Positions 1,150-13,932 of a stretch of 13,932 nucleotides of DNA are shown here, one piece after another. The notes beneath the pieces are model-generated. The model worked only from the letters and a program-made list of their open reading frames with translations. It searched no databases and had not been told where the DNA came from. The DNA is taken from positions 1 through 13,932 of the forward strand of contig JAJRWW010000627.1 of NCBI GenBank assembly GCA_024276595.1. The letters are read 5' to 3'. A program made the position numbers and the translations under genes. Every line of letters starts with the position of its first letter. Positions within the stretch are counted from its first letter, which is position 1. This DNA is from Myxococcota bacterium (GTDB taxonomy: Bacteria; Myxococcota_A; Polyangia; HGW-17; JAJRWW01).

Positions 1150-1349
1150 GTCCAACAGTCAGGATGATCCACTTTAGCCGCTCACGACCTCTCTCGCATG
1201 CGCCCATGTGAGTGTCATCGTTCGAAATGACTGAGCTCCAGGGAGACGGTATTGTACCATTGTTCTTGACTTGGGAACTGGGAGTGTCCACGATTTTGGC
1301 GGTCAGTGGTCTATATGTCAGTGGTCTATATGATGGAGGTGCAGTTTCC
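1150..1349 (+). promoter_or_regulatory. AT-richer leader/promoter region upstream of the lipoprotein gene, containing TTGACT (about 1266-1271) and TATAT boxes
   Basis: Local GC falls to about 50% against about 68% overall. TTGACT is a -35-like hexamer and TATAT is -10-like. I did not map a transcription start, so this is only a region call. Confidence 0.3.
1302..1331 (+). repeat. perfect tandem direct repeat, 2 x 15 bp (GTCAGTGGTCTATAT), ending 4 nt before the GGAGG RBS of the lipoprotein gene
   Basis: Read directly from the sequence: gtcagtggtctatat at 1302-1316 and again at 1317-1331. Each unit carries a TATAT, which is -10-like. Confidence 0.9.
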
Positions 1350-2147
1350 ATGAGCAGAACGAAATTGACGAAGTCGAACCGCGGGTTGCGACCGAGCCCC
1401 GGCCGCCTATGGTGGTGGGGGGCTGGTCCTGTTTGGGTCCTGGCCGGCTTGGTGTCCTGTGATGACGGGGGCTTCAAGTCCGTCGTGTCCACCGATGTGA
1501 CCAACGATCAGATCTCGGCGAAGCACTATGCGTATCGGCTCGGAGACGGCCGCATCGAGGCCGTCTCGAGGTTGCGGATCACCTGGGAATGCCCGGAGGA
1601 TGCCGGCTGTTTGCTCAACACACCGTTTCTGGAGCTCGTGGAACCGGATCGGCTGAGCCTTGTCTGCGGTGAGGTGACGGCGCCCTTTGTGCCCGTGATC
1701 AAGGATTCCATCCAACGGGTCTATCTGGCGGAGACAACGACCTGCACCGATGCGACCGAGGTCCGCTTCGTGCTGGAGCGCTCTTTGGGGACCCTCGAGT
1801 TCGTTGCTGAGTTCCCCGAGCCCTTCGAGATCCTCTCCCCGGCGGAGGGAGCGATCTTTTCCAGGGAGGACGGCTTCCAGATGGAGGTCTCCAGAGAGCT
1901 CACCAGCGTGTACATCTGGGGGGAGTGTATCAAGGATTGGAGTCGCATAAGCTGGACCTTGGGGAGCCTGAACGACTTCCCGGCGGGTCCTTTCGAGACC
2001 GCCGAGGGCCACGATGGGGAGACCTGCGAAGTCACCATCCAGGCCTACCGCTCCCGGGACGGGGTGGTGGATCCAGCGGTGGACCCGGAGACGAGCCTCA
2101 TCCAAGCCAGCGAGAAGCGAGTAGTGCACATCACGCTCACGCCCTAG
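1350..2147 (+). CDS. putative lipoprotein, 265 aa, with 6 further Cys residues; function unknown
   Basis: The internal start has GGAGGT at 1335-1340, 9 nt upstream of the ATG. The N-terminus MSRTKLTKSNRGLRPSPGRLWWWGAGPVWVLAGLVSC has a charged n-region, a hydrophobic core and an LVSC lipobox. The 46-codon N-terminal extension from 1212 in the six-frame ORF falls in the AT-rich region and lacks an RBS. GC3 is lower than in the neighbouring genes. Confidence 0.6.
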   Translation: MSRTKLTKSNRGLRPSPGRLWWWGAGPVWVLAGLVSCDDGGFKSVVSTDVTNDQISAKHYAYRLGDGRIEAVSRLRITWECPEDAGCLLNTPFLELVEPDRLSLVCGEVTAPFVPVIKDSIQRVYLAETTTCTDATEVRFVLERSLGTLEFVAEFPEPFEILSPAEGAIFSREDGFQMEVSRELTSVYIWGECIKDWSRISWTLGSLNDFPAGPFETAEGHDGETCEVTIQAYRSRDGVVDPAVDPETSLIQASEKRVVHITLTP

Positions 2148-2425: not shown

Positions 2426-3232
2426 CTAGTACTCGGTCTCCTTGCGAGGCTTGGTCACCGCGTCGATCATGGGATCGTATCCGCGGCGGCGGCGGGGGGA
2501 GTTGAGCTTGCGGCCCTCCAGCACCTTCTGGCGCATCCCGTTGTGAAAAAGCACGATGCAGAAGTTGCCGTAGATGGTGGACTTGTCTACCGCCCACATT
2601 CGGACGTCCTTGGCGCCTATCCACTCCACGTGGTGGAGACGGGGCTGACCGGCGAGGTCCTTTTTGAACACCGGCTGGCCCGCGCCAAAAGCCTTTATTA
2701 GCTTGCCCAGAAACTGCGGGAAGGTGAGCCCCTTGTAGTTCTTGTGGTCCGCGTTGAAGGCGATGAACTGCTTGTACAGCTTTCCGTTGTGAAAGAAGAA
2801 GAAGCGCTGCTGCTCCTTTTCCAAGAAGACGACGATGGACTCCTGGTTTCTGTGCCGAAACTGATCGTCCACGATGGACGAGTCCCAGCCGCTGCGCCTG
2901 CCGGTGAACTTGAAGTAGCTCTTTTTCACCTTCAGGAGCTTCTGCCTGAGCTCCTTGCGGAGCTTGTCCTGCTTGCGAGGTGAGGTCCTGGCCTGCCGGA
3001 TGCGCTTCAGATAGACCTTCCTCAGGTTGGCGGTGAGGAGCTTGATCACCTTGGAGGGGCCCAGGCCCCACTTGTACTTGCCAGTTAGCGCAGCAATGGC
3101 GGCGGCGGCTCGCTTGTTCACCTTTACCTTCTTTGTGACCTTTCGGCGGCGGCGCCGGCGGCGAGCATCGGCGTCCGTGGTCCAGGCCAACAGGAGGATG
3201 GATGTCAGGAGCAATACGGATACGCGTCTCAT
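2426..3232 (-). CDS. secreted, extremely basic (Lys/Arg-rich) protein of 268 aa; mature N-terminus RRRRRRRK; function unknown
   Basis: The internal ATG at 3232 is preceded by GGAGGGA. The N-terminus MRRVSVLLLTSILLLAWTTDADA is a classic Sec signal peptide with an AxA cleavage site. Two internal motifs are similar to each other: FFFFHNGKLYKQF and CIVLFHNGMRQKV. I recognise no family. The 96-aa upstream extension in the six-frame ORF is rejected. Confidence 0.6.
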   Translation of the reverse strand: MRRVSVLLLTSILLLAWTTDADARRRRRRRKVTKKVKVNKRAAAAIAALTGKYKWGLGPSKVIKLLTANLRKVYLKRIRQARTSPRKQDKLRKELRQKLLKVKKSYFKFTGRRSGWDSSIVDDQFRHRNQESIVVFLEKEQQRFFFFHNGKLYKQFIAFNADHKNYKGLTFPQFLGKLIKAFGAGQPVFKKDLAGQPRLHHVEWIGAKDVRMWAVDKSTIYGNFCIVLFHNGMRQKVLEGRKLNSPRRRRGYDPMIDAVTKPRKETEY

Positions 3233-3410
3233 GCTTCCCTCCGTCTGGAAGACGCTGTGATCTTCAGCCGCTGCATAGTAACAGGGCGGCCTTCCGGCCG
3301 CAAATCTTATCCGTGGACAAGCTCGCGCGTACCTGCCAGGGGCTGCCTCCTCGCCAGCGGCCTCGGGGGACGCAGCTATGGGGCTCTGACTTCCCCTTGG
3401 CGGCCAATAT

Positions 3411-4223
3411 TCAACGGCCCCGCGCCACCCGTGTCTTTCGCGCGCGGGGACGGTAGCCACGCCTGGCCACCCCACGCTTGAGATCCAGATAGGGTGTCCG
3501 GGAGTACATGGCCTCCTCACCCGGGCCGCCGTAGTCTATCCAGAAGGTCTTCTTTGCCCGCACGTCCAGGTGCATGTGGAAGCCGTTGGGGTAGTAGCCC
3601 ACGCCCACGTGGGAGTAGTGCCTGAGCAGGTAGTTGCGGATCCGAACGTTGGAGATGGCGTCGAAGTTGAAGTCGATTGCGTGACCTGTCACGTGCTTGC
3701 TGGTCTTGAGCCGGGCCACCACCTTGGGGCGGTTCCCGGAGAAGACCGACACCTGGGGTTGTCCGAAGTGCAGCCACAGGTCGTAGAGAATCACCAGCAG
3801 GCGCCAGTGTATCTTCTGGGCGCGGCCCGTGTGGGAGCAGCGCATGAACCGCGCGAAGCGCCTGAAGGCGGCCGCCCGGAGCTGCCCACGGGAGTCGTAG
3901 AGGCGGATCCTGATGGCCTCCCGGTTGTGCACGTGGTAAAGGGGCATGGAAGGCAGCCGCAGCAAGGCCCTGGCCCCTCTCCTCCCTCTTCTGCTCCGAC
4001 CCTTTCGCCTGGTCGCTCTCCTGGCCCTGCTCGTGATCCTGCGCACCGATCTCAGGCGCCTTCGATTGCGCAGGCGCCTCGCCGGACGCAGGCTCCGGTG
4101 ACCTCCCTCCCTTCGGACCCGCCGCACCTGGCGACCGCCGGGCACCGCCACGGACACGGCGGGCTCAGCCCCCAACAGGAGCAGCAGGCAGGGGAGCAGC
4201 AGGTGCATCTTCGGGGCTCTCAT
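3411..4223 (-). CDS. MepK/YcbK-family peptidoglycan endopeptidase (DUF882, peptidase M15A) with a Sec signal peptide and an Arg-rich region of about 55 aa, 27 of them Arg
   Basis: The ATG at 4223 is preceded by GGAGGA. The signal peptide reads MRAPKMHLLLPCLLLLLGAEPAVSVA. The catalytic region reads LYHVHNREAIRIRLYD...SGNRPKVVARL...KHVTGHAIDFNF...GVGYYPNGFHMHLDVRAKKTFW. This matches the YcbK/DUF882 consensus (HTGE..., SGYRSPxxN, SxHxxGxAxDF, GGVGYYPxSxFVHxDTGxxRxW). Confidence 0.8.
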   Translation of the reverse strand: MRAPKMHLLLPCLLLLLGAEPAVSVAVPGGRQVRRVRREGGHRSLRPARRLRNRRRLRSVRRITSRARRATRRKGRSRRGRRGARALLRLPSMPLYHVHNREAIRIRLYDSRGQLRAAAFRRFARFMRCSHTGRAQKIHWRLLVILYDLWLHFGQPQVSVFSGNRPKVVARLKTSKHVTGHAIDFNFDAISNVRIRNYLLRHYSHVGVGYYPNGFHMHLDVRAKKTFWIDYGGPGEEAMYSRTPYLDLKRGVARRGYRPRARKTRVARGR

Positions 4224-4400
4224 GGTTCCTCCAGGGATCTCCAGATTGGATGGACCACCGGAACCTGTCAATTTTCTCGCCCCCTTTTGCCCATCACGGG
4301 CATTGAACGGGCGGTGAAACTGGGGGCCATCTGTGCTATACAGCCTCTAGCACGTCGGTTTGGCGATGGGCGAAATTACGATCCTGAAGGAGGAATCGAG
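4224..4400. promoter_or_regulatory. divergent promoter region between the M15A peptidase gene (minus strand) and the acidic lipoprotein gene (plus strand)
   Basis: 177 bp of lower GC (ttttctcgcccccttttgcccatcacgggcattgaacg..., gcgaaattacgatcc) are flanked by two oppositely oriented starts. Each start has a GGAGG RBS. Confidence 0.35.
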
Positions 4401-5366
4401 ATGAGAACTAAGCTAGTAGCAGTAATGGCGGCCTTCACCCTGGCCCTCTCACTGGGAGCCGCGGCCGGCTGCAGCGACGACGACGTTGGCGAGATCTGCG
4501 ACAACGGCGTGGACGACGACGGCGACGGCCTCGCGGATTGCGACGACCCCCTCTGCGACATGGACGAGGCCTGCCAGCCCGTCTGTGGCGATGGCGTGGC
4601 CGAGGGTGACGAGGTGTGCGACACCAACGACCTGGCCGGCAACACCTGCGCATCCGAGGGCTTTGACGATGGCGACCTGGCCTGCAACGCCACATGTGAC
4701 GGCTTTGACGACAGCGCCTGCTACGACTACTTTTGCGGCGATGACGCGGCCGAGGGTACAGAGGAATGCGACGGCGTGGACCTGGCGAACACGACCTGCG
4801 AAGACCTCGGCTACCTGGGCGGCGACCTGGCCTGCGACACGGACTGCTTCTTCGACGAGTCCGGCTGCTTCGACACCGTGACCTGCAGCGACGCCAGCTT
4901 CATGGGCACAGGGGGCCAGGCCTTTGGTGGCGACAGCCAGAACGGCAACTACGACTGGTTATACCAGGAGCTGGTGGACCTGGGTGACGGGGCCACCTGG
5001 CTGCTCTCCATCGAGCTGTACGGCGACTTTGTAAATGGCGGAGGCGGAATCACCACGGGCGCACACGACGTCTCCGTGCCCCCCGAGGACAACTACGCCA
5101 CCTGCGCCTACTGCGTGCTCATGCGGCGCTGTGCAGACGCCCAGTGCAGCAACGTGGAGGCGGTCTTCTTCCCCACCGCCGGAACCCTCCAGCTCGATGT
5201 CCTGTCTCAGGCCGGCATGGGCTCGTTTCAGGGCAGCATCTCCGACTTCAACTGGGAGGAGGTCACCATCGACTCGTCCACCTACGAGTCCACCGCCGTG
5301 GTGGGCGGTGACTGCTTCAACCTGACCGCGGCATACACGGTGGACGCCACCGTGGACGCCATGTAG
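4401..5366 (+). CDS. acidic Cys-rich lipoprotein of 321 aa with Myxococcus-type cysteine-rich repeats and a C-terminal beta-rich domain of unknown function
   Basis: GAAGGAGG lies 7 nt upstream of the ATG. The signal peptide MRTKLVAVMAAFTLALSLGAAAGC ends in a candidate lipobox. An Asp-rich CDNGVDDDGDGLADCDDPLC module is followed by tandem repeats: VCGDGVAEGDEVCDTNDLAGNTC...GDLACNATCDGFDDSAC and FCGDDAAEGTEECDGVDLANTTC...GDLACDTDCFFDESGC. About 25% of residues are D or E. The 5' 277-codon extension in the six-frame ORF runs antisense to the peptidase gene and is rejected. Confidence 0.75.
   Translation: MRTKLVAVMAAFTLALSLGAAAGCSDDDVGEICDNGVDDDGDGLADCDDPLCDMDEACQPVCGDGVAEGDEVCDTNDLAGNTCASEGFDDGDLACNATCDGFDDSACYDYFCGDDAAEGTEECDGVDLANTTCEDLGYLGGDLACDTDCFFDESGCFDTVTCSDASFMGTGGQAFGGDSQNGNYDWLYQELVDLGDGATWLLSIELYGDFVNGGGGITTGAHDVSVPPEDNYATCAYCVLMRRCADAQCSNVEAVFFPTAGTLQLDVLSQAGMGSFQGSISDFNWEEVTIDSSTYESTAVVGGDCFNLTAAYTVDATVDAM
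4581..4868 (+). repeat. internal tandem duplication encoding two Cys-rich modules of about 46 aa inside the lipoprotein gene
   Basis: The repeat is visible at protein level: xCGDxxAEGxExCDxxDLAxxTCxxxGxxxGDLACxxxCxFDxSxC appears twice. It is degenerate at DNA level. Confidence 0.7.
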
Positions 5367-5436: not shown

Positions 5437-8400
5437 CTACTGTGTGTCCAGCCCCTTGAGGGCGTCCAGCAGCTCACGGAGCTGGTTCAGCTCTCCGAGG
5501 GCCTGCTCGATCATCGCGTCCACGGCGGGATCCACCACGCCGGCCTTCTTCAAGCGCCGGTCGATGGTGCGGAGCGCGTCCACAACCCGGATGTCCATGG
5601 AGGGGGAGAGGGAGCGGAGCTGGCTCCGGATGGTGGCAGGCAGGGAGAAGCTGTGCTTTCCCCCGGGGGGAGAGGGATGGCCTGCCAGCTCTGGCTCCAG
5701 GGACTTGGACGCGAGCTGGGACCGACCCGCAGCCGCCGCAGGAGATGCCGGGGCAGCGCCCGGCGCCTGGGGGGGCGCATGGGGCCGCATGGGGCCGGCC
5801 GCCGGGGGTGGGGAGACCGCGCCCGCGCTGCTCCCTCCACCCCTGCCCGCCTGGGCGTACCGCTCCATGGCGGCCACCATGGCCTGCACCCCCTGGCTGA
5901 GCGCTGCGAGCTGCTCGGTCACCTGCCCGACCGCCTCCGTGTCCGCAGCCGGCCGCCGCGACTCACCCTCCGAGCCTGCGCTCGGGGCCCTCCGGCCAGA
6001 GAGGCTCTCCTCCAGCTTCTCCAGCAAGAGCGCCTGGATCTGGTTGGACTCTGCGGTCTTCTCCCTGTCCGCCTCAACCGCCCTGGAGGCGTCCTGGATC
6101 CGCTGGCTGATGTCGCCCAGCTTCTCCGAGACGAGGCCCAGGGTGCCGGTGACCCTTGTCACCGGGTCGTCCTCGGCGCCCCCCATGGAGCGCTGCCTGC
6201 GGAAGCCCTCCTTGATCTCCTCCCAGCGGGCGGCCTGCTCCTCGGTCATCCGATTCCGCAGCTCGGCCAGCTTCAGAAGGTTCTGCTCCGCGCCGGTGGT
6301 CAGGGACTGGGCCTCGCCCTGGTAGTGGTCGTCCAGCAGGCTCTCCAGCTCGGAGTCGTTCATTACGGGCAGGATCTTCTCCGCCAGCTTGTTCATGTTG
6401 CGATAGCTGCCCTGGAGCTGGAAGCGCGGCTCCGTGCGGTAGGCGTCGTCCTGGGCGGCGGAGTAGATGTACTGCTGGTTGACCGAGAGCAGGACCCGCT
6501 GCACCCGCTGCAGCTTCTCCAGGACGGAGAGCACATCCTTGAGCTCCACCGACGAGTAGGGGTGGCTGAGCTGGTCCGCCTGCACCTCCTCACCGGCGGC
6601 CATGCGCACCAGCTTGTACAGGTCCTCTGGGTCCCGCGTGGTGAGAGGCGACAGCACCGGGTTGGAGGTGAGGGCGTTCTCCATGTACGACAGGGCGAAT
6701 GCCTCCTCGCGGCCCTCGAGGATGTCACCCAGGTTGTAGGTGTCGGCGCGGTTGGCCAGCATGTCAGGGATCTGGAACTTCTCCCCCGACTCGGTGTAGG
6801 GGTTGCCAGCCATGCACACAGCGAACTTCTTTCCCCGGAAGTCGTAGGTGCGGGTCTTTCCTTTCCACACCCCCTCGATGCGTCGCTGGGCGTCGCAGAG
6901 GGAGATGAACTTCTGCAGCAGCTCGCTGCTTGTGTGCTGGATGTCGTCGATGTACAGCAGCACGTTGTTGCCCATCTCAAAGGCGAGGTTGATCTTCTCC
7001 ACCTCCTGGCGCGCGGTGGCGTTGGGAGCCTCGGAGGGGTCCAGGGAGAGGACCTGGTGGCCCAGAGCGGGGCCGTTGATCTTCATGAACACCAGCCCAA
7101 GCCTGTTGGCGATGTACTCCATGAGGGTGGTCTTGCCGTAGCCAGGGGGAGAGATGAGCAGCAGCATCCCCATGAGGTCCGTGCGCTTGTTCTTGCCCAG
7201 GGCACCTATCTGCTTGGCCAGGTTGTCGCCGATCAGGGGGAGATACACCTCACTGATGAGCTTGTTGCGCACGAAGGAGCTCATCACCTTTGGCATGTAC
7301 TCCGAGATCCGGAGCGCCTCCCGCTCCCGCTCCAGCAGGTCGTGCCGGAGCTCCCTGAAGCGCTGGAAGGCGACGACTCGCTCCCGGCGGAAGGTGCCCA
7401 GGCGGGTCATGAACTCGTCCAGCCTCAGGTGGAGCGTCCGGTTTACGATGCGTGGATGCTGGCCCAGCAGGCCCTCCACGTCCGCAGAGGTCAGAGCGTG
7501 GCTCACCGAGCGCTGCACCTTGGACTCGGTCAGGATGAGCATCACCGCCTCCCTCACGGCGTGGCGGTTTGCTCTGACAGCCTCGTCGCTGGCGACATCC
7601 ACGAAGGCGCCAAGCCAGGCCTCCGCAAGCTCGAAGCGCTCCTCCACGCTGTCGGCGAGGAGCCGGAGATCGTCTGTGAACCCACGGTCGTTCTTGGTCT
7701 TCCGCAGGTGCTTCATGAAGTCCTTGCGGAGCTGCTCCGCCTCGGCGCTGATGACGAGCTCCACCGGGTCGGACGCCAGCTCCTCTGCCAGGTACTGGCC
7801 GGCGAAGCGGGCCTCCTCCGGGTCCAGATGGATGGACTCGGCCTGGAAGAAAGCGGAGATCGCCTCCGAGAGCTCTCCGTACAGCTCCGCGTGGGCGGCG
7901 CTGGGGGCGAAGGTGTCCCGCAGGCGCGCGAGGGAGCGCGCCCGGCGAGTCCAGCGCTCGGCGCGCTCCCTGTCCTCGTAGTGCGCCCAGAACAGGTTGG
8001 CCGCTGCCCGGGAGGAGGAGGAGAAGCGCAGCAGCCCGGCGGACTGGTACAGGGTGAGCAGCTTCCCGAGGATGAGCGCCGCGTCCGCGTCGTGCAGCCC
8101 TCGTTCATAGCCCTCGTCGTAGGCCTCGCCGGCGTACTGGCGCACGATCTCCAGCAAGTCCGTCTCGGTGGCCGCGGCTGCCCGGAGCTGAGCCAGGCTG
8201 TGGTTGCCCCGCTCCAGCTCGGCGTCCGCCAGGATCTTGGCGGCCAGGTACTCCCCACGGTACACATCGGCGGTCTCGCTCACTAGCTGCTGATCCCACA
8301 GGTCCCGGGTCTGGGCAAACTCAGGGTCGTCGATTCTCTGGTAGAAGTCGGTGCCAGTGAGGTGCAGGTACATCTCACCGTCCCGGGGCACCATGGTGAG

Positions 8401-11040
8401 ATCCAGAGGCTGAGTGTTTACGCTGAAGCTGTGGCGGCCCAGCTTGATGGAGTCGCCACCGTCGGTGAAGATGTCCTCCCTGTCCCGCAGCCCCCTGGCA
8501 GCATCCTGGATGGCCCCCTTCAGCCGGGCCTCCACCTCGTCCGCCTTTACCGAGTCTCCCAGCTCCCGGAGGTCTGAGGAGAGATCCTTGAGCTTTGTGA
8601 CCATGGGGTCGGAGGCAAAGTAGGAGTTGAGCTCGTCCACGTCGGCGAAGGTGGCTGCGCGGCGGCTCACCGTCTGGAGGATTCGCTCGGCGGCCTGCAT
8701 CATGTTCCCGGCGCGGCGCTGGCGCGCGTCCAGGAGCTGCTGCTTCTTGGTGGAGAAGGCCTTGTAGACCTCCTCCCGCTTGGTGGAAAGATCCTCGATG
8801 AACTGGTCGAACTCGGCGTAGCGGCTCTCCAGCTCCTCCAGCGCCATCATGAGGCGCGACAGCTCGGAGTCACACTTGGCAGGGGTGTCCGCCAGACCCA
8901 GGGCGCTGGTGACGTTCTGGGAGAAGACGTTGAACTCGGCACCGAACTCGGCCACCGCCTCCGTGGAGAGCAGCTCCTTGCGACGGTTCTCCAGCAGCGC
9001 CCTGCAGCGGTTCAGGCTCCCGAGCACCTCCGAGATGCCCTCCAGGATCTGCGTGCGCTGGGTAGAGTCCTCGAGCTTCAGCCCCCCGACAACCTCCGTG
9101 AGCATCTGGAGCTGCTCGTTCATGGTCTCCACCCGCTGGCGCAGGGGCTCGGCCTCGGCCACCTTCTCGATGGCCTCGCTGGAGCTCACCAGCTCGGCGA
9201 TCTTTTCGTGGTAGGGAGCCAGGGCATCCTCCCCCAGCAGAAACCTCACGGTGTGGCCGGTGAGCTTTTCGAACTGCTCCACCACCCGGGCCTCCAGGCC
9301 ATCCACCCGGGCGACGTCAACGTGACGGAGATTGCGCAAGGTGATGAGCTGCCCGCGCTGCTTGCGCAGGGCCGCCAGCCCCTCCACGAAGGCGTCCGAG
9401 GTGGTCCAGGAGTCGGGCTTGAGGTCCCTCAGCAGCTCCGCAAGCTGCTTCTCCGCGCGGTCCACCGCCTGACCGGACTGGCGCCGCACCTCCTCCACCT
9501 TCTGGAACTCGTCCACGATGAGGCTGGCGGTGTCCTTTATCTCCTCCAGGGGTTTGCGGAGGTTGCCCACCTCATCTCGATCCAGCCAGTAGTGGTCGTC
9601 GAGCACCCGGGACACGGCAGCCACCAGGTCCTCGTAGATCTGGACCGTGGGCCTCTGCTCCTCCACGGCCCTGCGAATGGAGAGCATGTCCGAGATGCCG
9701 CGCACCAGGTCGGCGTTGCCGATCTTTTCCAGGTATGAGCCCGAGGAAGGGGCCCTGGCGGCAAACTCGTCACTGGTAAAGGGGGTCTGCCAGATCTGCA
9801 TGGGGTGAACCCGCGTGGGCTCGTCGCTCTCGGTGCGGAAGACCACCAGCTTCCCGTCGGGGAACAGACCAAAGCCGTTGCACCTGATCGGGTTCTGCAG
9901 CTCCTTGCGGATCATGTTATAGGGCAGCAGCACCGACCTGCCCTCCATGCGGCTGTGGAAGATGTACAGCACGTCCTCGCCGTTGGGCGAACGGATCATG
10001 CGCATGAACTCCAGGCTCTCGGTGCTCCCTTCGAAGGTCTTGGTCTCTCCCGACTGCAGGTGGTAGCCGCCGGGGAAGATGACCCCGTGGTCCTCGGGGA
10101 GCTGAACGCAGGCTTGACCGATGGCGTCTATGCGCTCGGCCCTCTTGGTGCGGGTGTTAAAGAGCAGGTATCGATAGTGCTCCTCCCGGTAGGGGAGCAC
10201 CTTGAAGAGCACCAGCACCCCAACCCGAGCGTAGAGGATCTCTGCGTCGTCCAGCGACTGGTCCGGGTCCTCCACCGGCTCCCGGTAGACCCCCAGGCCG
10301 TCCTCGGTGTTGTCCTCCACCTTGATGGTGAGGTCGCCGCCCACGGTCTCGATGAACACCTCGTCGTCGATGGAGATGTGGGGGTGACGGCCCGGCACAT
10401 GCTGCTCCCTGGTGGTGGGGACCCACTCGAAGTCGTGGGAGGGGGGGAAGACCTGCTCCCGCTCCCCCCTGTTGTCGATGTAGGTGACCTCGCTGCCATC
10501 GGGGGACACGGCCCACTGGAAGACCCTGATGTCAGAGACGGTGGCGCCGGTCCTGAAGACAGCCAGCAGCTTTTGACCCACGCGCCGGAGCTGCATGAGC
10601 TCGGTGTCCTTGTAGAACCGATACAGCTCGGAGAACTCGCTGATGAACTTGGGCGCCGCCAGGAAGGAGGCATCCACCGCCTCCAGCTTGAACCCATCAT
10701 CGGTCTGCTCGAAGGAGCGAAGAGAGAGCACATCCGAGACGTCAGTCTCCTTCTTCAGGCCCAAAAAGGCGTTGTAGCCAAAAAGCAGCCGGTCTCCCAC
10801 CTCCACGATGTCCCTGGGCACGCAGTTGTTCTCGGTGCGGATGCGCTCGTTGCCAATGATGGCCATCTGGGTGCCACCAAAAACCTTGATTCGCTCGGCG
10901 TTGAGGGCCTGAGCCTTTTCCCCCAGCCCCCTGGCCTGCTGCACCAGGCGGTCCCTGATGATCTCGTAGGTGCCCTGCTCGATGGCAGCGGCGCCCTCCG
11001 TCTCCTCCACGACGCCGGCGGCTTTTTCTTCAGCGGCCAT
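5437..11040 (-). CDS. giant coiled-coil AAA+ ATPase of about 1,867 aa. Layout: N-terminal globular domain (about aa 1-430) unassigned; coiled-coil-rich region (about aa 430-1250); AAA+ module (about aa 1250-1450); Pro/Ala/Gly-rich linker (about aa 1683-1795); conserved C-terminal helix
   Basis: The single 5.6-kb ORF has strong GC3 bias. The ATG at 11040 is preceded by GGGAGAGG; an in-frame GTG at 11043 is an alternative start. The P-loop LLLISPPGYGKTTLMEY is encoded at 7126-7152 and Walker B VLLYIDDIQH at 6943-6960. A downstream segment, AVCMAGNPYTESGEKFQIPDMLANRADTYNL, resembles sensor regions of MoxR/AAA_5 ATPases. No protease, nuclease or vWA motifs are seen. Confidence 0.85.
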   Translation of the reverse strand: MAAEEKAAGVVEETEGAAAIEQGTYEIIRDRLVQQARGLGEKAQALNAERIKVFGGTQMAIIGNERIRTENNCVPRDIVEVGDRLLFGYNAFLGLKKETDVSDVLSLRSFEQTDDGFKLEAVDASFLAAPKFISEFSELYRFYKDTELMQLRRVGQKLLAVFRTGATVSDIRVFQWAVSPDGSEVTYIDNRGEREQVFPPSHDFEWVPTTREQHVPGRHPHISIDDEVFIETVGGDLTIKVEDNTEDGLGVYREPVEDPDQSLDDAEILYARVGVLVLFKVLPYREEHYRYLLFNTRTKRAERIDAIGQACVQLPEDHGVIFPGGYHLQSGETKTFEGSTESLEFMRMIRSPNGEDVLYIFHSRMEGRSVLLPYNMIRKELQNPIRCNGFGLFPDGKLVVFRTESDEPTRVHPMQIWQTPFTSDEFAARAPSSGSYLEKIGNADLVRGISDMLSIRRAVEEQRPTVQIYEDLVAAVSRVLDDHYWLDRDEVGNLRKPLEEIKDTASLIVDEFQKVEEVRRQSGQAVDRAEKQLAELLRDLKPDSWTTSDAFVEGLAALRKQRGQLITLRNLRHVDVARVDGLEARVVEQFEKLTGHTVRFLLGEDALAPYHEKIAELVSSSEAIEKVAEAEPLRQRVETMNEQLQMLTEVVGGLKLEDSTQRTQILEGISEVLGSLNRCRALLENRRKELLSTEAVAEFGAEFNVFSQNVTSALGLADTPAKCDSELSRLMMALEELESRYAEFDQFIEDLSTKREEVYKAFSTKKQQLLDARQRRAGNMMQAAERILQTVSRRAATFADVDELNSYFASDPMVTKLKDLSSDLRELGDSVKADEVEARLKGAIQDAARGLRDREDIFTDGGDSIKLGRHSFSVNTQPLDLTMVPRDGEMYLHLTGTDFYQRIDDPEFAQTRDLWDQQLVSETADVYRGEYLAAKILADAELERGNHSLAQLRAAAATETDLLEIVRQYAGEAYDEGYERGLHDADAALILGKLLTLYQSAGLLRFSSSSRAAANLFWAHYEDRERAERWTRRARSLARLRDTFAPSAAHAELYGELSEAISAFFQAESIHLDPEEARFAGQYLAEELASDPVELVISAEAEQLRKDFMKHLRKTKNDRGFTDDLRLLADSVEERFELAEAWLGAFVDVASDEAVRANRHAVREAVMLILTESKVQRSVSHALTSADVEGLLGQHPRIVNRTLHLRLDEFMTRLGTFRRERVVAFQRFRELRHDLLEREREALRISEYMPKVMSSFVRNKLISEVYLPLIGDNLAKQIGALGKNKRTDLMGMLLLISPPGYGKTTLMEYIANRLGLVFMKINGPALGHQVLSLDPSEAPNATARQEVEKINLAFEMGNNVLLYIDDIQHTSSELLQKFISLCDAQRRIEGVWKGKTRTYDFRGKKFAVCMAGNPYTESGEKFQIPDMLANRADTYNLGDILEGREEAFALSYMENALTSNPVLSPLTTRDPEDLYKLVRMAAGEEVQADQLSHPYSSVELKDVLSVLEKLQRVQRVLLSVNQQYIYSAAQDDAYRTEPRFQLQGSYRNMNKLAEKILPVMNDSELESLLDDHYQGEAQSLTTGAEQNLLKLAELRNRMTEEQAARWEEIKEGFRRQRSMGGAEDDPVTRVTGTLGLVSEKLGDISQRIQDASRAVEADREKTAESNQIQALLLEKLEESLSGRRAPSAGSEGESRRPAADTEAVGQVTEQLAALSQGVQAMVAAMERYAQAGRGGGSSAGAVSPPPAAGPMRPHAPPQAPGAAPASPAAAAGRSQLASKSLEPELAGHPSPPGGKHSFSLPATIRSQLRSLSPSMDIRVVDALRTIDRRLKKAGVVDPAVDAMIEQALGELNQLRELLDALKGLDTQ
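5777..5796 (-). repeat. perfect 10-bp tandem duplication (gcatggggcc x2) inside the low-complexity linker coding region
   Basis: Read directly. It encodes GPMRPHAPP on the minus strand. The unit length is not a multiple of 3. Confidence 0.85.
6693..7293 (-). other. AAA+ ATPase core (Walker A and Walker B) of the giant protein
   Basis: Walker A is the GPPGxGKT-type SPPGYGKTT. Walker B is hhhhDD (LLYIDD), about 60 aa downstream. An MAGNP motif lies about 45 aa after that, as in MoxR/dynein-like AAA_5 domains. Confidence 0.7.
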
Positions 11041-11043
11041 CAC

Positions 11044-11171
11044 CCTCTCCCGTTTCTGGCTGGCTCAAGGTCGCCAGCCCGGGGCAGTTTCTCCTCGACC
11101 AGGGAGCGCCCGATGGGCCGGAGCACTCGGTCGAGTGCGTGGCCGCCACCTGACCTGGTCCTTGCCCTGGT
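11044..11171 (-). promoter_or_regulatory. 128-bp spacer between the flotillin gene and the giant ATPase gene, both on the minus strand; likely co-transcribed, possibly with an internal promoter
   Basis: The two genes share a strand and sit close together. The only RBS is immediately before the ATPase start, and I see no strong hairpin in the spacer. Confidence 0.3.
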
Positions 11172-13346
11172 CTAAAGCTCGGCCTCGTCCACGCCCAGCT
11201 TCTTCGCCTCGGCGAGGAGCGACTGGAGCTTGGACTTGCCGGCATCGTCGGTCTTGAGCATCAGCTTGCCCAGCAGCCCAGAGAGGGTGAGGTTCTGCAG
11301 GTCGGCAGGCGAGATGGCTGAGTTTGAAAGCACCTGCTTGAGGTCCTCGGGCAAGTTGGCGCTCCTGTCCAGGTAGTCCTTGAACGCGGTGGAGGCGGCG
11401 CCGGAGCCCTTGAAGAAGCCGTCCACGCTCTTGCCGAGGGTCACGGAGTTCACGAGCCGCTCGAAGAACAGGTTCTCGCCGCCAACGATGTCGATCTTGG
11501 CGGTCTTGAGGGCCTCGGCCACGATCTCTGCCTGGGAGCGAGCGACCTCCTTGCGGGCCTCGATGCCCTGCAGCTCGATGGCGCGCTCGTTCTCCAGGCG
11601 CAGGCGGTACTCCTCGTGCCCCCGGCTGGCGTCGTCCAGGGCGCCCATGGCCCGGGCCTTCTCCTCCAGTCCGGAGGCCTCCGCCTCCAGCTTCAGTCGG
11701 ATGGCCTCGGCCTCGGCCATGCCCTGCTCCCGGGTGACCACCGCGGTGGAGAGCCCCTTCTCCTTGGAGACGACTGCCTCGGCCATGCCGTGCTTCTCCG
11801 TGGCGCCAGCGTCCACCTCCTTGACCTTGGCCCTGGCCTCCCCCTGCGCCTCGATGCCCCTGGCCTCCGCCTGCATCTTCTCCAGCAAGATCCGCGCCTC
11901 GGCCATGCCCACCTTCTCGATGGCGTCGGCGTCGGCGTTCTTCACGGTGACGGTGGCCAGACCGGCGGCGGCGGCCTCCGCCTGGGTCCCCTCGGCCAGG
12001 CGCATCTTGGCCTGGGCCTCCTTGTCGGAGACCTCGAGCTGTGCGTCGGCGAGCAGGAGCCTCTCCCGGGCGCGGAACTTGGCCGCCTCCTCGGCCGCCT
12101 CGGCCGCCTTGATGTCCTTCACCAGCTTCTCCTGGGCCTGGGCCTCGGCGGTGATGATGGTGGCCTCCTTGCTGCGCTTGGCCTCCTCCACCAGCCGCAA
12201 GGCCTTTATTCGCTCCTCCTCCTCGGCCTGGGTGCGCTCCACCGCCAGACGCTCTCGGATGACGTCGGCGATCTCCTTCTTCTCCCTCTCCACCTCTTTT
12301 TGCTTGGCTATGGTGCCCAGCTCGGTCTCCCGCTCCCTGGCGATGGCCTCCAGGGCCCGGTCCTTCTCTACCCGCTCGTTCTCCACTGCCACGACCCGCT
12401 CGCGGTTCTTCATGGCCACCGCCACCTGGCGGGCCTTGTTCTCCTCGTTGATGGCGATCTCCTCCTCGGTCTTGATGCGCGCCAGCTCTGCCTTGCGCCT
12501 CTCCTCTGCCTGGACCTTCTGGGTCTCTGCCGCCTCTCTGGCGCGCACGACGGCTATCTCCCGAGCCTGCTTCGCCTCGGCGTCCGCCTGCTGCCGCTCC
12601 AGCTCCAAGATGGCCTCTTTGGCCTCCACGTTCTGCTTGGTGATGAGCTTCCGCTCATTGTTCTCAAAGTCGTTGGTGCGAACGTTCTCGGACGCGGTCA
12701 GATCGGTGATCTTCCGGATGCCCTGGGCGTCCAGCACGTTCTTGGGGTCGAGGGACTCCAGGGGGGTCTGCTCCAGGTAGTCGATGGCGGCGTCCTCTAG
12801 CTGGTAGCCGTTGAGGTCCACGCCGATGACCTCGATGATCCGCTTGCGGAAGTCCTCCCGCTTTGTGTAAAGGTCCACGAAGTCGAGCTGCTTGCCCACG
12901 GTCTTGAGGGCCTCTGAGAACTTGGCATTGAAGAGCTCCTCCAGGGCCATCCGATCCGACGCGCGGGCGCAGCCAACCGACTGCGCCACCTGGATGACGT
13001 CATCGGTGGAGCGTCCGACCCGGACATAGAAGGTGACCTTGATGTCCGCCCGGATGTTGTCCTTGCAGATCATCCCATCCTTGCCCCGCCGGTCGATCTC
13101 TATGGTGTTGAGGGAGATGTCCATGATCTCCGCCTTGTTGTACACTGGCCAGACGAAGTGCCCGGTGAAGGCGACCTTCACCTTGCCCCGCGGGCTCGAC
13201 ACGATGAGCACCTTCCCCTGGGGCACCTTGCGATAGAAGCCCGCCAGGAACGTGGGAATGAGCAAGATCAGCGCGAGGATGGCGACCCCAACGATCACTA
13301 GCAGCGACATCAGAGGGCTGAGCCCCATGAGGGCAAAAACAGACAT
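11172..13346 (-). CDS. flotillin-like SPFH/Band 7 membrane protein (YqiK/FloT family), 724 aa. It has an N-terminal TM segment, an SPFH domain, and an EA-rich coiled-coil flotillin region of about 370 aa
   Basis: The ATG at 13346 is preceded by GAAGGAGG. The N-terminus MSVFALMGLSPLMSLLVIVGVAILALILLIPTFLAGFYRKVPQGKVLIVSS...VKVAFTGHFVWPVYNKAEIMDISLNTIEIDR...IRADIKVTFYVRV is a typical flotillin start: hairpin/TM, then SPFH beta-sheet. Long AEAxxA/ERxK repeats follow. I reject the 22-codon upstream extension (MTPPPPRRQRPP...). Confidence 0.9.
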   Translation of the reverse strand: MSVFALMGLSPLMSLLVIVGVAILALILLIPTFLAGFYRKVPQGKVLIVSSPRGKVKVAFTGHFVWPVYNKAEIMDISLNTIEIDRRGKDGMICKDNIRADIKVTFYVRVGRSTDDVIQVAQSVGCARASDRMALEELFNAKFSEALKTVGKQLDFVDLYTKREDFRKRIIEVIGVDLNGYQLEDAAIDYLEQTPLESLDPKNVLDAQGIRKITDLTASENVRTNDFENNERKLITKQNVEAKEAILELERQQADAEAKQAREIAVVRAREAAETQKVQAEERRKAELARIKTEEEIAINEENKARQVAVAMKNRERVVAVENERVEKDRALEAIARERETELGTIAKQKEVEREKKEIADVIRERLAVERTQAEEEERIKALRLVEEAKRSKEATIITAEAQAQEKLVKDIKAAEAAEEAAKFRARERLLLADAQLEVSDKEAQAKMRLAEGTQAEAAAAGLATVTVKNADADAIEKVGMAEARILLEKMQAEARGIEAQGEARAKVKEVDAGATEKHGMAEAVVSKEKGLSTAVVTREQGMAEAEAIRLKLEAEASGLEEKARAMGALDDASRGHEEYRLRLENERAIELQGIEARKEVARSQAEIVAEALKTAKIDIVGGENLFFERLVNSVTLGKSVDGFFKGSGAASTAFKDYLDRSANLPEDLKQVLSNSAISPADLQNLTLSGLLGKLMLKTDDAGKSKLQSLLAEAKKLGVDEAEL

Positions 13347-13504
13347 GTCCCGGACCTCCTTCGTCCCAAGAACCCGTGGGGGTCTTTGTCGTCTGGGCGG
13401 GGGTGGCGTCACGAGGAGCCCGTCCCCTGCTGGGATCTACGCCTCTCCCCGCCCCGCTGTCAAGGCCAAGTAGCTGCGGGGAGAGATCCCTGGCGGGGCC
13501 GAGG

Positions 13505-13720
13505 CTACCAGTCGTCGGGATCCGAGGGCGGGGGGCGCCTCCGAGGGGATCCGTCCACCCCTCCATCGAGAGGCTCAGTGGGAGTGGGGGCGCCGAAGGT
13601 CTCACCCAGGCGCCGGGCACAGGAGTCGCGGAACAGGAGCCACGCCGCCAGCAGCAGCAGCGCCAGGGCCAGGAAGATGTACTGCTGTGCCGAGACGTTG
13701 GGGCGGTGTCTCTGCCCCAT
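13505..13720 (-). CDS. possible small single-pass membrane protein of 72 aa (MGQRHRPNVSAQQYIFLALALLLLAAWLLF...), immediately upstream of the flotillin gene
   Basis: GC3 is high in this frame, at about 85%. One hydrophobic helix is followed by a Pro/Asp-rich tail. The RBS is weak (GCGAGG). The six-frame ORF extends to 13915 but would then overlap the recJ 3' end, so the start at Met66 is preferred. Confidence 0.35.
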   Translation of the reverse strand: MGQRHRPNVSAQQYIFLALALLLLAAWLLFRDSCARRLGETFGAPTPTEPLDGGVDGSPRRRPPPSDPDDW

Positions 13721-13778
13721 TCGCGCTCGGCGACCTCGCTGCAGAGGCCCGCTCGGGCGGCCGGGCTCGACCCCTCGC

Positions 13779-13932
13779 TCAGCCATCGCTCTTCGAGGGC
13801 GCAATGTCCAGGAGGCGAAGCTGGATGGATGTCTTGCCTCGATAGGTGTTGTGCTCTGGCACGAAGACCAGCCTGAGCGGTGAGTGAAGCGCCGGGGCCC
13901 GGCTGCCCATCCCAAAGCCGATGGCCTCGTGA
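13779..13932 (-). CDS. recJ: 3' end of recJ-like single-stranded-DNA exonuclease (partial; stop codon at 13779-13781)
   Basis: The minus-strand frame gives ...HEAIGFGMGSRAPALHSPLRLVFVPEHNTYRGKTSIQLRLLDIAPSKSDG*. The EHNTYRGKTSIQLRLLDI segment resembles the E. coli RecJ C-terminus (...DINEFRGNRSLQIIIDNI...), which I recall from memory. Confidence 0.5.
   Translation of the reverse strand, partial: HEAIGFGMGSRAPALHSPLRLVFVPEHNTYRGKTSIQLRLLDIAPSKSDG

Follow-up and report, generated by a model that had tools for sequence, protein, structure and literature searches.

The DUF3686 head of a giant MoxR-type AAA+ protein encoded beside a flotillin-like gene in a Myxococcota bacterium

The giant ATPase gene and its N-terminal domain

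The window analyzed here, a stretch of 13,932 nucleotides from a Myxococcota bacterium (assembly GCA_024276595.1, contig JAJRWW010000627.1), carries on its minus strand a gene for a giant ATPase, whose N-terminal domain is the main subject of this analysis, and upstream of it a gene for a flotillin-like protein. The ATPase gene spans positions 5437 to 11043 and codes for 1868 amino acids (aa) when translated from a GTG at 11043. Because the ribosome-binding site GGGAGAGG lies 6 nt before an ATG at 11040, the ATG is probably the start codon rather than the GTG; a preliminary description of the N-terminal domain had set its outer end at this same position. Hundreds of homologues of the protein were found, at 40-81% identity, and orthologues were located in 80 genome loci. 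This is far beyond what could be expected of a chance open reading frame (ORF), and thus the gene is real, as had been supposed. A plus-strand ORF at 9805-11175 was rejected as a shadow ORF of the GC-rich (65%) DNA; all homology lies in the minus-strand frame. The layout of the predicted protein can be given with high confidence: a propeller-like head is followed by a helical or coiled-coil arm of ~750 aa, a MoxR-type AAA+ motor and a variable tail, in a protein that is soluble and cytoplasmic. No transmembrane segment was found in it, the maximum 19-residue Kyte-Doolittle mean being 1.39.

The preliminary description had seen no recognisable motifs in the N-terminal domain. This statement has to be withdrawn, since residues 40-485 (9589..10926, minus strand) match the Pfam family DUF3686 (PF12458) in hmmscan with E=3.2e-209 and a score of 695.5 bits. 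The Pfam gathering threshold of 25 bits is thus passed across the full profile (positions 2-448 of 448). The accompanying observation, that no nucleotide-binding, catalytic or transmembrane signature is present, held: the beta domain described below has no P-loop or catalytic Pfam match, hydropathy stays within the maximum given above, and searches of NCBIfam, PADLOC and PHROGs returned nothing for the N-terminal part.

The N-terminal 489 aa, used as query, recovered 579 database proteins at E<=1e-5, of which the best 120 listed were 50-64% identical to the query, and also 354 genome stretches. The closest relative, at 81% identity, is encoded on a contig of a 'Deltaproteobacteria' metagenome-assembled genome (MAG), here called L001. 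A full scan of 1.84 billion representatives put the family at ~1,060 members, about 1,000 at 50% identity, and in nearly all full-length representatives DUF3686 is the N-terminal part of a protein of 1600-2000 aa. Several complete-genome entries (e.g. P0033, P0100, P0114 and P0331) annotate, on megabase contigs, fragments of 460-570 aa of a ~1700-aa protein that hold the N-domain alone or the AAA region alone, which suggests that, in GC-rich genomes, the gene is frameshifted, a pseudogene or split by the gene caller.

A structural model of residues 1-489 was built with AlphaFold2 (AF2) from a 56-sequence alignment, and had a mean predicted local distance difference test (pLDDT) score of 90.4 and a predicted template modelling (pTM) score of 0.88. 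After a disordered or low-confidence start (about aa 1-22), the model has a long N-terminal helix (aa 13-55, 10879..11007, minus strand, from DSSP and pLDDT), a beta domain (aa 58-422, 9778..10872, minus strand) whose 28 predicted strands span residues 61-419, and a neck (aa 423-488, 9580..9777, minus strand) with helices at 437-441, 443-462, 467-483 and 485-488 that links the beta domain to the helical middle of the protein. The earlier characterization of the domain as globular and beta-rich agrees well with the model. The two peptides quoted in its support fall in strands, VLYIFHSRMEGRSVLLPYN in strands 357-364 and 369-376 and GKLVVFRTESDE in strand 398-402, and the proposed domain end near residue 430 is close to the end of the beta part at about residue 420. 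The helix at 13-55 and two helices at 443-488 belong to the same Pfam domain.

The 28 strands of the model, taken in groups of four, fit seven four-stranded blades. When the beta domain was compared with known structures using Foldseek, the best matches were all propellers (probability 1.0, E about 1e-6). Their TM-scores, however, were low, 0.2-0.28 when taken by query and at most 0.42 when taken by target. These structural neighbours include WD40 scaffolds, sialidases, paraoxonase, prolyl oligopeptidase, PAL, glutaminyl cyclase and YncE. While all top structural neighbours of the beta domain are propellers of the WD40, PD40, NHL and sialidase kinds, DUF3686 differs from them in having neither sequence repeats nor Pfam repeat matches. 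Neither the seven putative blades nor the halves of the domain showed a significant repeat when compared with hhalign, blade-versus-blade probabilities being at most 11%; one marginal internal match, GDRLLFGYN with GRSVLLPYN, had E=0.05. In Pfam searches at E<=10 with the beta domain and with single blades, DUF3686 itself and a spurious POLO_box were the sole matches, with no WD40, PD40, Kelch or NHL, and the family profile had no meaningful match among the sequences of the PDB. A motif S-P-D/N-G-x-x-V-x-Y/F, seen by eye at residues 180, 352 and 394, recalls what we take to be a PD40-like pattern, although none of the tools confirmed it. Given the low TM-scores, the lack of blade repeats and the lack of a solved sequence relative, we describe the domain as propeller-like rather than as a certified propeller; the model is consistent with a divergent beta-propeller-like module that falls short of a certified seven-bladed propeller.

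The preliminary description had further argued that the domain, lying outside the ATPase core, is of the partner-binding type, and had taken a confident match to a known domain of established function as grounds for rejecting this. The model favors the proposal, as the beta domain looks non-catalytic and its predicted fold class is one that usually binds partners. The match to DUF3686 is indeed confident, but that family has no established function; with this and the propeller-like fold, the earlier claim is reinterpreted, not refuted.

Conservation, motor and tail

Conservation was measured in an alignment of 70 orthologues from several phyla, as the majority fraction and the number of invariant positions per region. 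The AAA+ core is the most conserved part (majority fraction 0.87, with 89 of 185 positions invariant), and the beta domain is second only to it (0.74, with 86 of 365 invariant). The N-terminal helix (0.63), the helical middle (0.55-0.70) and the helical lid with the extension that follows the AAA+ core (0.69) all rank lower, and the C-terminal tail is hardly conserved at all (0.22, no invariant position among 218, and 49% gaps). A specificity element had been proposed, but a module that chooses targets particular to each lineage would be expected to vary. A beta domain nearly as conserved as the motor is therefore better read as a head for a fixed partner or ligand. Judging from this alignment, the DUF3686 head probably binds one fixed partner or ligand, and the element that varies between lineages is the tail.

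About 40 of the invariant positions of the beta domain are polar or charged. Examples are R67, N73, C74, D78, D104, D171, D190, W207, H222, K241, E243 and E255, and, further along, D266, E287, R291, D306, C312, N354, E356, D357, Y375, N376, H413 and W418. Of 41 invariant polar residues, 34 recur in the proteins of Pseudomonas and Hymenobacter, whose identity is 45-51%. Such a pattern, together with the many propeller enzymes among the structural neighbours, could mean that the DUF3686 propeller acts in its own right, as an enzyme or as a sensor of a small molecule or lipid headgroup, with a site in its central face that is coupled to the AAA+ motor. However, no catalytic family was found for it by sequence in Pfam, NCBIfam or the PDB, and the structural matches to non-enzymatic WD40 scaffolds are equally good. 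We consider an enzyme or sensor unlikely, and prefer a head that docks onto a fixed partner.

By context, the middle of the protein (aa 489-1250, 7294..9579, minus strand) is helical or coiled-coil. It contains a second Pfam family, DUF7902 (PF25472; aa 606-690, 8974-9228, minus strand, E=1.1e-30), it has a weak match to the SMC-like LmuB of PADLOC (aa 502-823, E=4e-5), and the corresponding region is labelled as coiled-coil in the published operons discussed below (PMC11237479).

The motor (aa 1286-1470, 6634..7188, minus strand) belongs to the MoxR clade of AAA+ proteins, with a MoxR-like fold. In Pfam it gave a full-length match to AAA_5 and partial matches to AAA, AAA_22 and RuvB_N, and in NCBIfam it gave P-loop matches below threshold only (RuvB, CDC48, RFC). 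Its similarity in sequence to p97 is confined to the surroundings of the P-loop. Walker A is intact and invariant (GYGKT, residues 1301-1305). Sensor-1 is N1414, with a beta-hairpin ahead of it and an NP motif after its strand. The Walker B-like element is DDIQ, at about residues 1365-1369 (about 6940-6951 in the window), within an invariant LYIDDIQ. All homologues examined, those of Pseudomonas and Hymenobacter included, have D-D here and thus depart from the canonical hhhhDE.

The architecture bears directly on the name under which the family is annotated. Full-length and very high-scoring matches were obtained to DUF3686 and DUF7902; NCBI names the protein 'DNA repair ATPase', and Pfam labels DUF3686 'ATPase involved in DNA repair'. 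If these labels were right, the protein would be a true repair ATPase of the SMC, SbcC or RecN kind, and its N-domain would bind DNA or repair factors; the LmuB match, and the presence of YncE, a DNA-binding propeller, among the structural neighbours, could be cited in support. The protein has, however, a single MoxR-like AAA+ domain at residues ~1286-1470 rather than a split ABC/SMC head, its N-terminal beta domain lacks a P-loop, and the LmuB match is confined to the coiled-coil region. Its neighbours do not include DNA-binding, nuclease or repair genes, the conserved ones being membrane proteins, and a full-text search of the available literature library found no paper naming DUF3686 or PF12458. 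The label thus implies a role in DNA repair that neither architecture nor gene context supports, and we flag this widespread name as unsupported. We regard the DNA-repair reading as largely refuted by the domain architecture, and most probably the name is an artefact, the coiled coil resembling proteins of the SMC/SbcC type, as the LmuB match illustrates.

Beyond the motor, helices in the AF2 model define a lid and post-AAA extension (aa 1471-1650, 6094..6633, minus strand), and the pattern of conservation delimits a variable Pro/Ala-rich C-terminal tail (aa 1651-1868, 5440..6093, minus strand). The tail of the window's protein has no Pfam match and no PilZ domain. In orthologues from Polyangiaceae and Sorangium (L046, L066, L074 and L080; Pfam E~1e-7), and in two metagenomic proteins (P0352 and P0377), the tail ends in a PilZ domain, which suggests that the ATPase may be under cyclic di-GMP (c-di-GMP) control in those lineages.

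The flotillin-like partner and the gene neighbourhood

The gene immediately upstream of the ATPase (11172..13412, minus strand) encodes a protein of 746 aa. From its sequence, this is a flotillin/YqiK-like protein: hydropathy predicts an N-terminal membrane segment at residues 22-63, and the protein further has an SPFH domain, a long Glu/Ala-rich coiled coil and a conserved C-terminal segment (aa 640-746). Band_7 (PF01145) was found with E=2.6e-11 when the N-terminal 300 aa were scanned alone, while the full-length protein gave no Pfam match at E<=0.1, presumably because the long Glu/Ala/Lys-rich coiled coil triggers a composition correction. Automated annotation may thus miss the SPFH domain of this partner, and the Hymenobacter homologue is in fact annotated as a 'hypothetical protein'. 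In the 128 nt that separate the two genes, no terminator-like site was found on the minus strand.

The context of the ATPase was counted in the 80 nearest related genome loci. A flotillin-like gene lies immediately upstream and on the same strand in 67 of them. Of the other 13, eight end less than ~250 bp upstream of the ATPase and five have at least 1.3 kb of upstream DNA in which no flotillin-like gene is found, so that linkage is about 93% among the loci with enough upstream DNA to be informative. Two of these five loci (L071 and L074) are from Sorangium and two (L049 and L062) from gammaproteobacterial MAGs; in L062, an ORF that by eye resembles a DNA methyltransferase is located just upstream of the ATPase.

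Unsupervised clustering of the flanking ORFs revealed one further conserved neighbour, a YqiJ-like protein of ~260 aa whose gene lies upstream of that for the flotillin in 63 loci. Its sequence comprises membrane helices and, at the C-terminus, an OB-like segment, and it is homologous (E=8e-9) to a protein annotated by NCBI as 'DUF1449 family' (the YqiJ family). In L001, a putative ATPase-like ORF of unrelated sequence stands in its place. No homologues of PspA, Tir or YjfI were found in the window or within +/-10 kb in the 80 loci.

Larger clusters are found on plasmids. A Hymenobacter plasmid carries an operon for a Tir chaperone, PspA/IM30, a DUF1449 protein, a 722-aa hypothetical protein and a 'DNA repair ATPase'; this ATPase and the window's protein share 45% identity in the N-domain, and the 722-aa protein aligns along its entire length with the window's flotillin-like protein, also at 45% identity. 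The operon reproduces the neighbourhood published in PMC11237479 (see below). On plasmid pQBR103 of P. fluorescens, the cluster comprises YjfI, PspA, a rhomboid protein, DUF2491, DUF350, DUF1190, a glutathionylspermidine-synthase-like protein, a hypothetical protein, an SPFH protein and a 'DNA repair ATPase'.

The distribution of the family might be taken to indicate a mobile conflict or anti-phage system, in which the propeller senses an invader (compare MoxR-vWA-propeller and STAND-type systems) and the ATPase triggers a membrane response through the flotillin. Occurrence is patchy, in Acidobacteriota, Myxococcota, Actinomycetota, Planctomycetota, Gammaproteobacteria, Bacteroidota and Deinococcus, and identities of 50-65% across phyla suggest horizontal transfer. 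Copies are carried on large plasmids, pQBR103 among them, and a DNA methyltransferase gene lies no more than ~9 kb from the pQBR103 copy, with about ten genes of the PspA/SPFH cluster in between. We nevertheless think a defence role improbable. PADLOC v2 gave weak coiled-coil (LmuB) and P-loop-level matches only for the ATPase and none for the flotillin partner, no phage homologues were found in PHROGs or by tblastn of phage genomes, and no effector domain (nuclease, protease, TIR or similar) is present in the protein or in its conserved neighbours. Conflict sensors diversify, whereas the conservation of this beta domain comes close to that of the ATPase core, and the conserved partners, SPFH, YqiJ and PspA, are proteins of membrane homeostasis.

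Published operons, proposed mechanism and other genes of the window

A comparative genomic study of the phage shock protein (PSP) system (PMC11237479, mSystems 2024) described, by computation, a 'Betapropeller+Coiled-coil+AAA-ATPase' protein encoded downstream of YqiJ and a Band-7/flotillin protein. The operon combines four elements, among them a CesT/Tir-PspA component and a YqiJ/YuaF protein with three transmembrane segments (3TM), and abbreviated operons without PspA are widespread. The window's ATPase has the same order of propeller, coiled coil and AAA+ domain, with an SPFH gene immediately upstream, but the window lacks YqiJ-like, PspA and Tir genes. Because both domain order and gene order match, and because the window's proteins have homologues in the Hymenobacter operon, we place the window in this family; because no PspA, Tir or YjfI lies within 10 kb, it belongs to the abbreviated form, of which it is the shortest, two-gene version (flotillin and ATPase). 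In the literature on flotillin, AAA+ proteins and YqiJ, this was the sole relevant paper found; a P. aeruginosa SPFH paper and a 2009 paper on SPFH evolution leave the ATPase unmentioned. The domain is thus already catalogued (as DUF3686 in Pfam) and was described computationally in 2024, and the window is an ordinary member of the family. To the catalogue entry the present analysis adds a confident model of the head fold and the finding that conservation of the head is close to that of the motor, and it places the motor in the MoxR clade.

The motor shares with the MoxR proteins NorQ, CbbQ and RavA the AAA_5 match, the pre-sensor-1 beta-hairpin and the NP motif. MoxR proteins, however, are of ~250-500 aa and have a vWA/MIDAS partner (NorD, CbbO and ViaA), whereas the window's protein has 1868 aa, with a propeller head and an arm of ~750 aa, a Walker B with D-D, and no vWA gene nearby. 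Functional analogies, and no more than that, can be drawn to HflK/C-FtsH and prohibitin-m-AAA, in which an SPFH scaffold is likewise genetically coupled to an AAA+ machine, and to Vps4-ESCRT-III/PspA, since PspA (of the ESCRT-III superfamily) is in the same operon in some lineages. The window's ATPase lacks a protease domain and a membrane anchor, and is of the MoxR rather than the classical FtsH/Vps4 clade.

A giant cytoplasmic AAA+ protein encoded beside a flotillin gene is an obvious candidate regulator of bacterial flotillin assemblies, and a mechanism of the following kind can be proposed. The core module consists of a flotillin-like SPFH membrane scaffold and the ATPase, whose genes are almost always linked; usually the YqiJ/DUF1449 protein (3TM and OB) is encoded ahead of the flotillin, and in some lineages PspA and a CesT/Tir chaperone are as well. 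The propeller-like DUF3686 domain, set between the N-terminal helix and two neck helices, forms the head of the giant protein. The AAA+ domains would oligomerise into a ring, as do NorQ and CbbQ, and the propeller heads, on their long arms, would dock onto one invariant partner, most likely the flotillin assembly at the inner membrane face or a client held by it. ATP hydrolysis could then remodel, assemble or dismantle the scaffold during membrane maintenance or stress. We assign this mechanism as a whole, with the head as a fixed docking or ligand site, a probability of about 0.5. The narrower proposal that the propeller is the receptor by which a MoxR-type motor ring grips a cytoplasmic flotillin cage or its client is more tentative, and we would not presume it to be correct. 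Were this narrower proposal to hold, the module would be the first dedicated ATP-driven machine for assembly or disassembly of bacterial flotillin microdomains, and the ATPase would be a Vps4/NSF-like regulator of SPFH scaffolds, tuned in some lineages by c-di-GMP via PilZ.

Several observations weigh against flotillin remodelling. With D-D rather than D-E in Walker B, the rate of hydrolysis is uncertain. The family has so far been described by computation, and contact between ATPase and flotillin is predicted from gene linkage. Five loci (L040, L049, L062, L071 and L074) carry the ATPase with no adjacent flotillin gene, although these may be second paralogues or rearranged copies. No YqiJ-like gene was found in the 520 bp that precede the flotillin gene (13413-13932), in the rest of the window or in the upstream DNA of L001 (1-1832); the source genome could still carry one past the window's end or at another site. 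MoxR ATPases as a rule have a vWA partner, but no vWA Pfam match was found in the giant protein or its window neighbours, nor is there a vWA protein among the conserved neighbours in the 80 loci. Finally, a platform used purely for docking would not usually have some 40 invariant polar residues, and the site of an enzyme or of a small ligand would fit them as well.

The other genes of the window (1212-2147, 2426-3520, 3570-5366 and others) gave no Pfam matches, apart from the peptidase ORF described next, and nothing homologous to them was found beside the ATPase elsewhere. They were rejected as members of the module, not being conserved beside the ATPase in other loci. A minus-strand ORF at 3411-4271 has a DUF882/Peptidase_M15_2 match (E=1e-10) and bears no relation to the ATPase module. 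Because about 110 nt of it coincide with the start of the minus-strand ORF at 2426-3520, the start codon assigned to one of these two ORFs is probably wrong. The plus-strand ORF at 3570-5366 has no Pfam match, and its second half appears to encode a Cys/Asp-rich secreted lipoprotein with repeated C-x-D-G-x-D motifs; the gene within it probably starts at the internal lipoprotein signal MRTKLVAVMAAFTLALSLGAAAGC.

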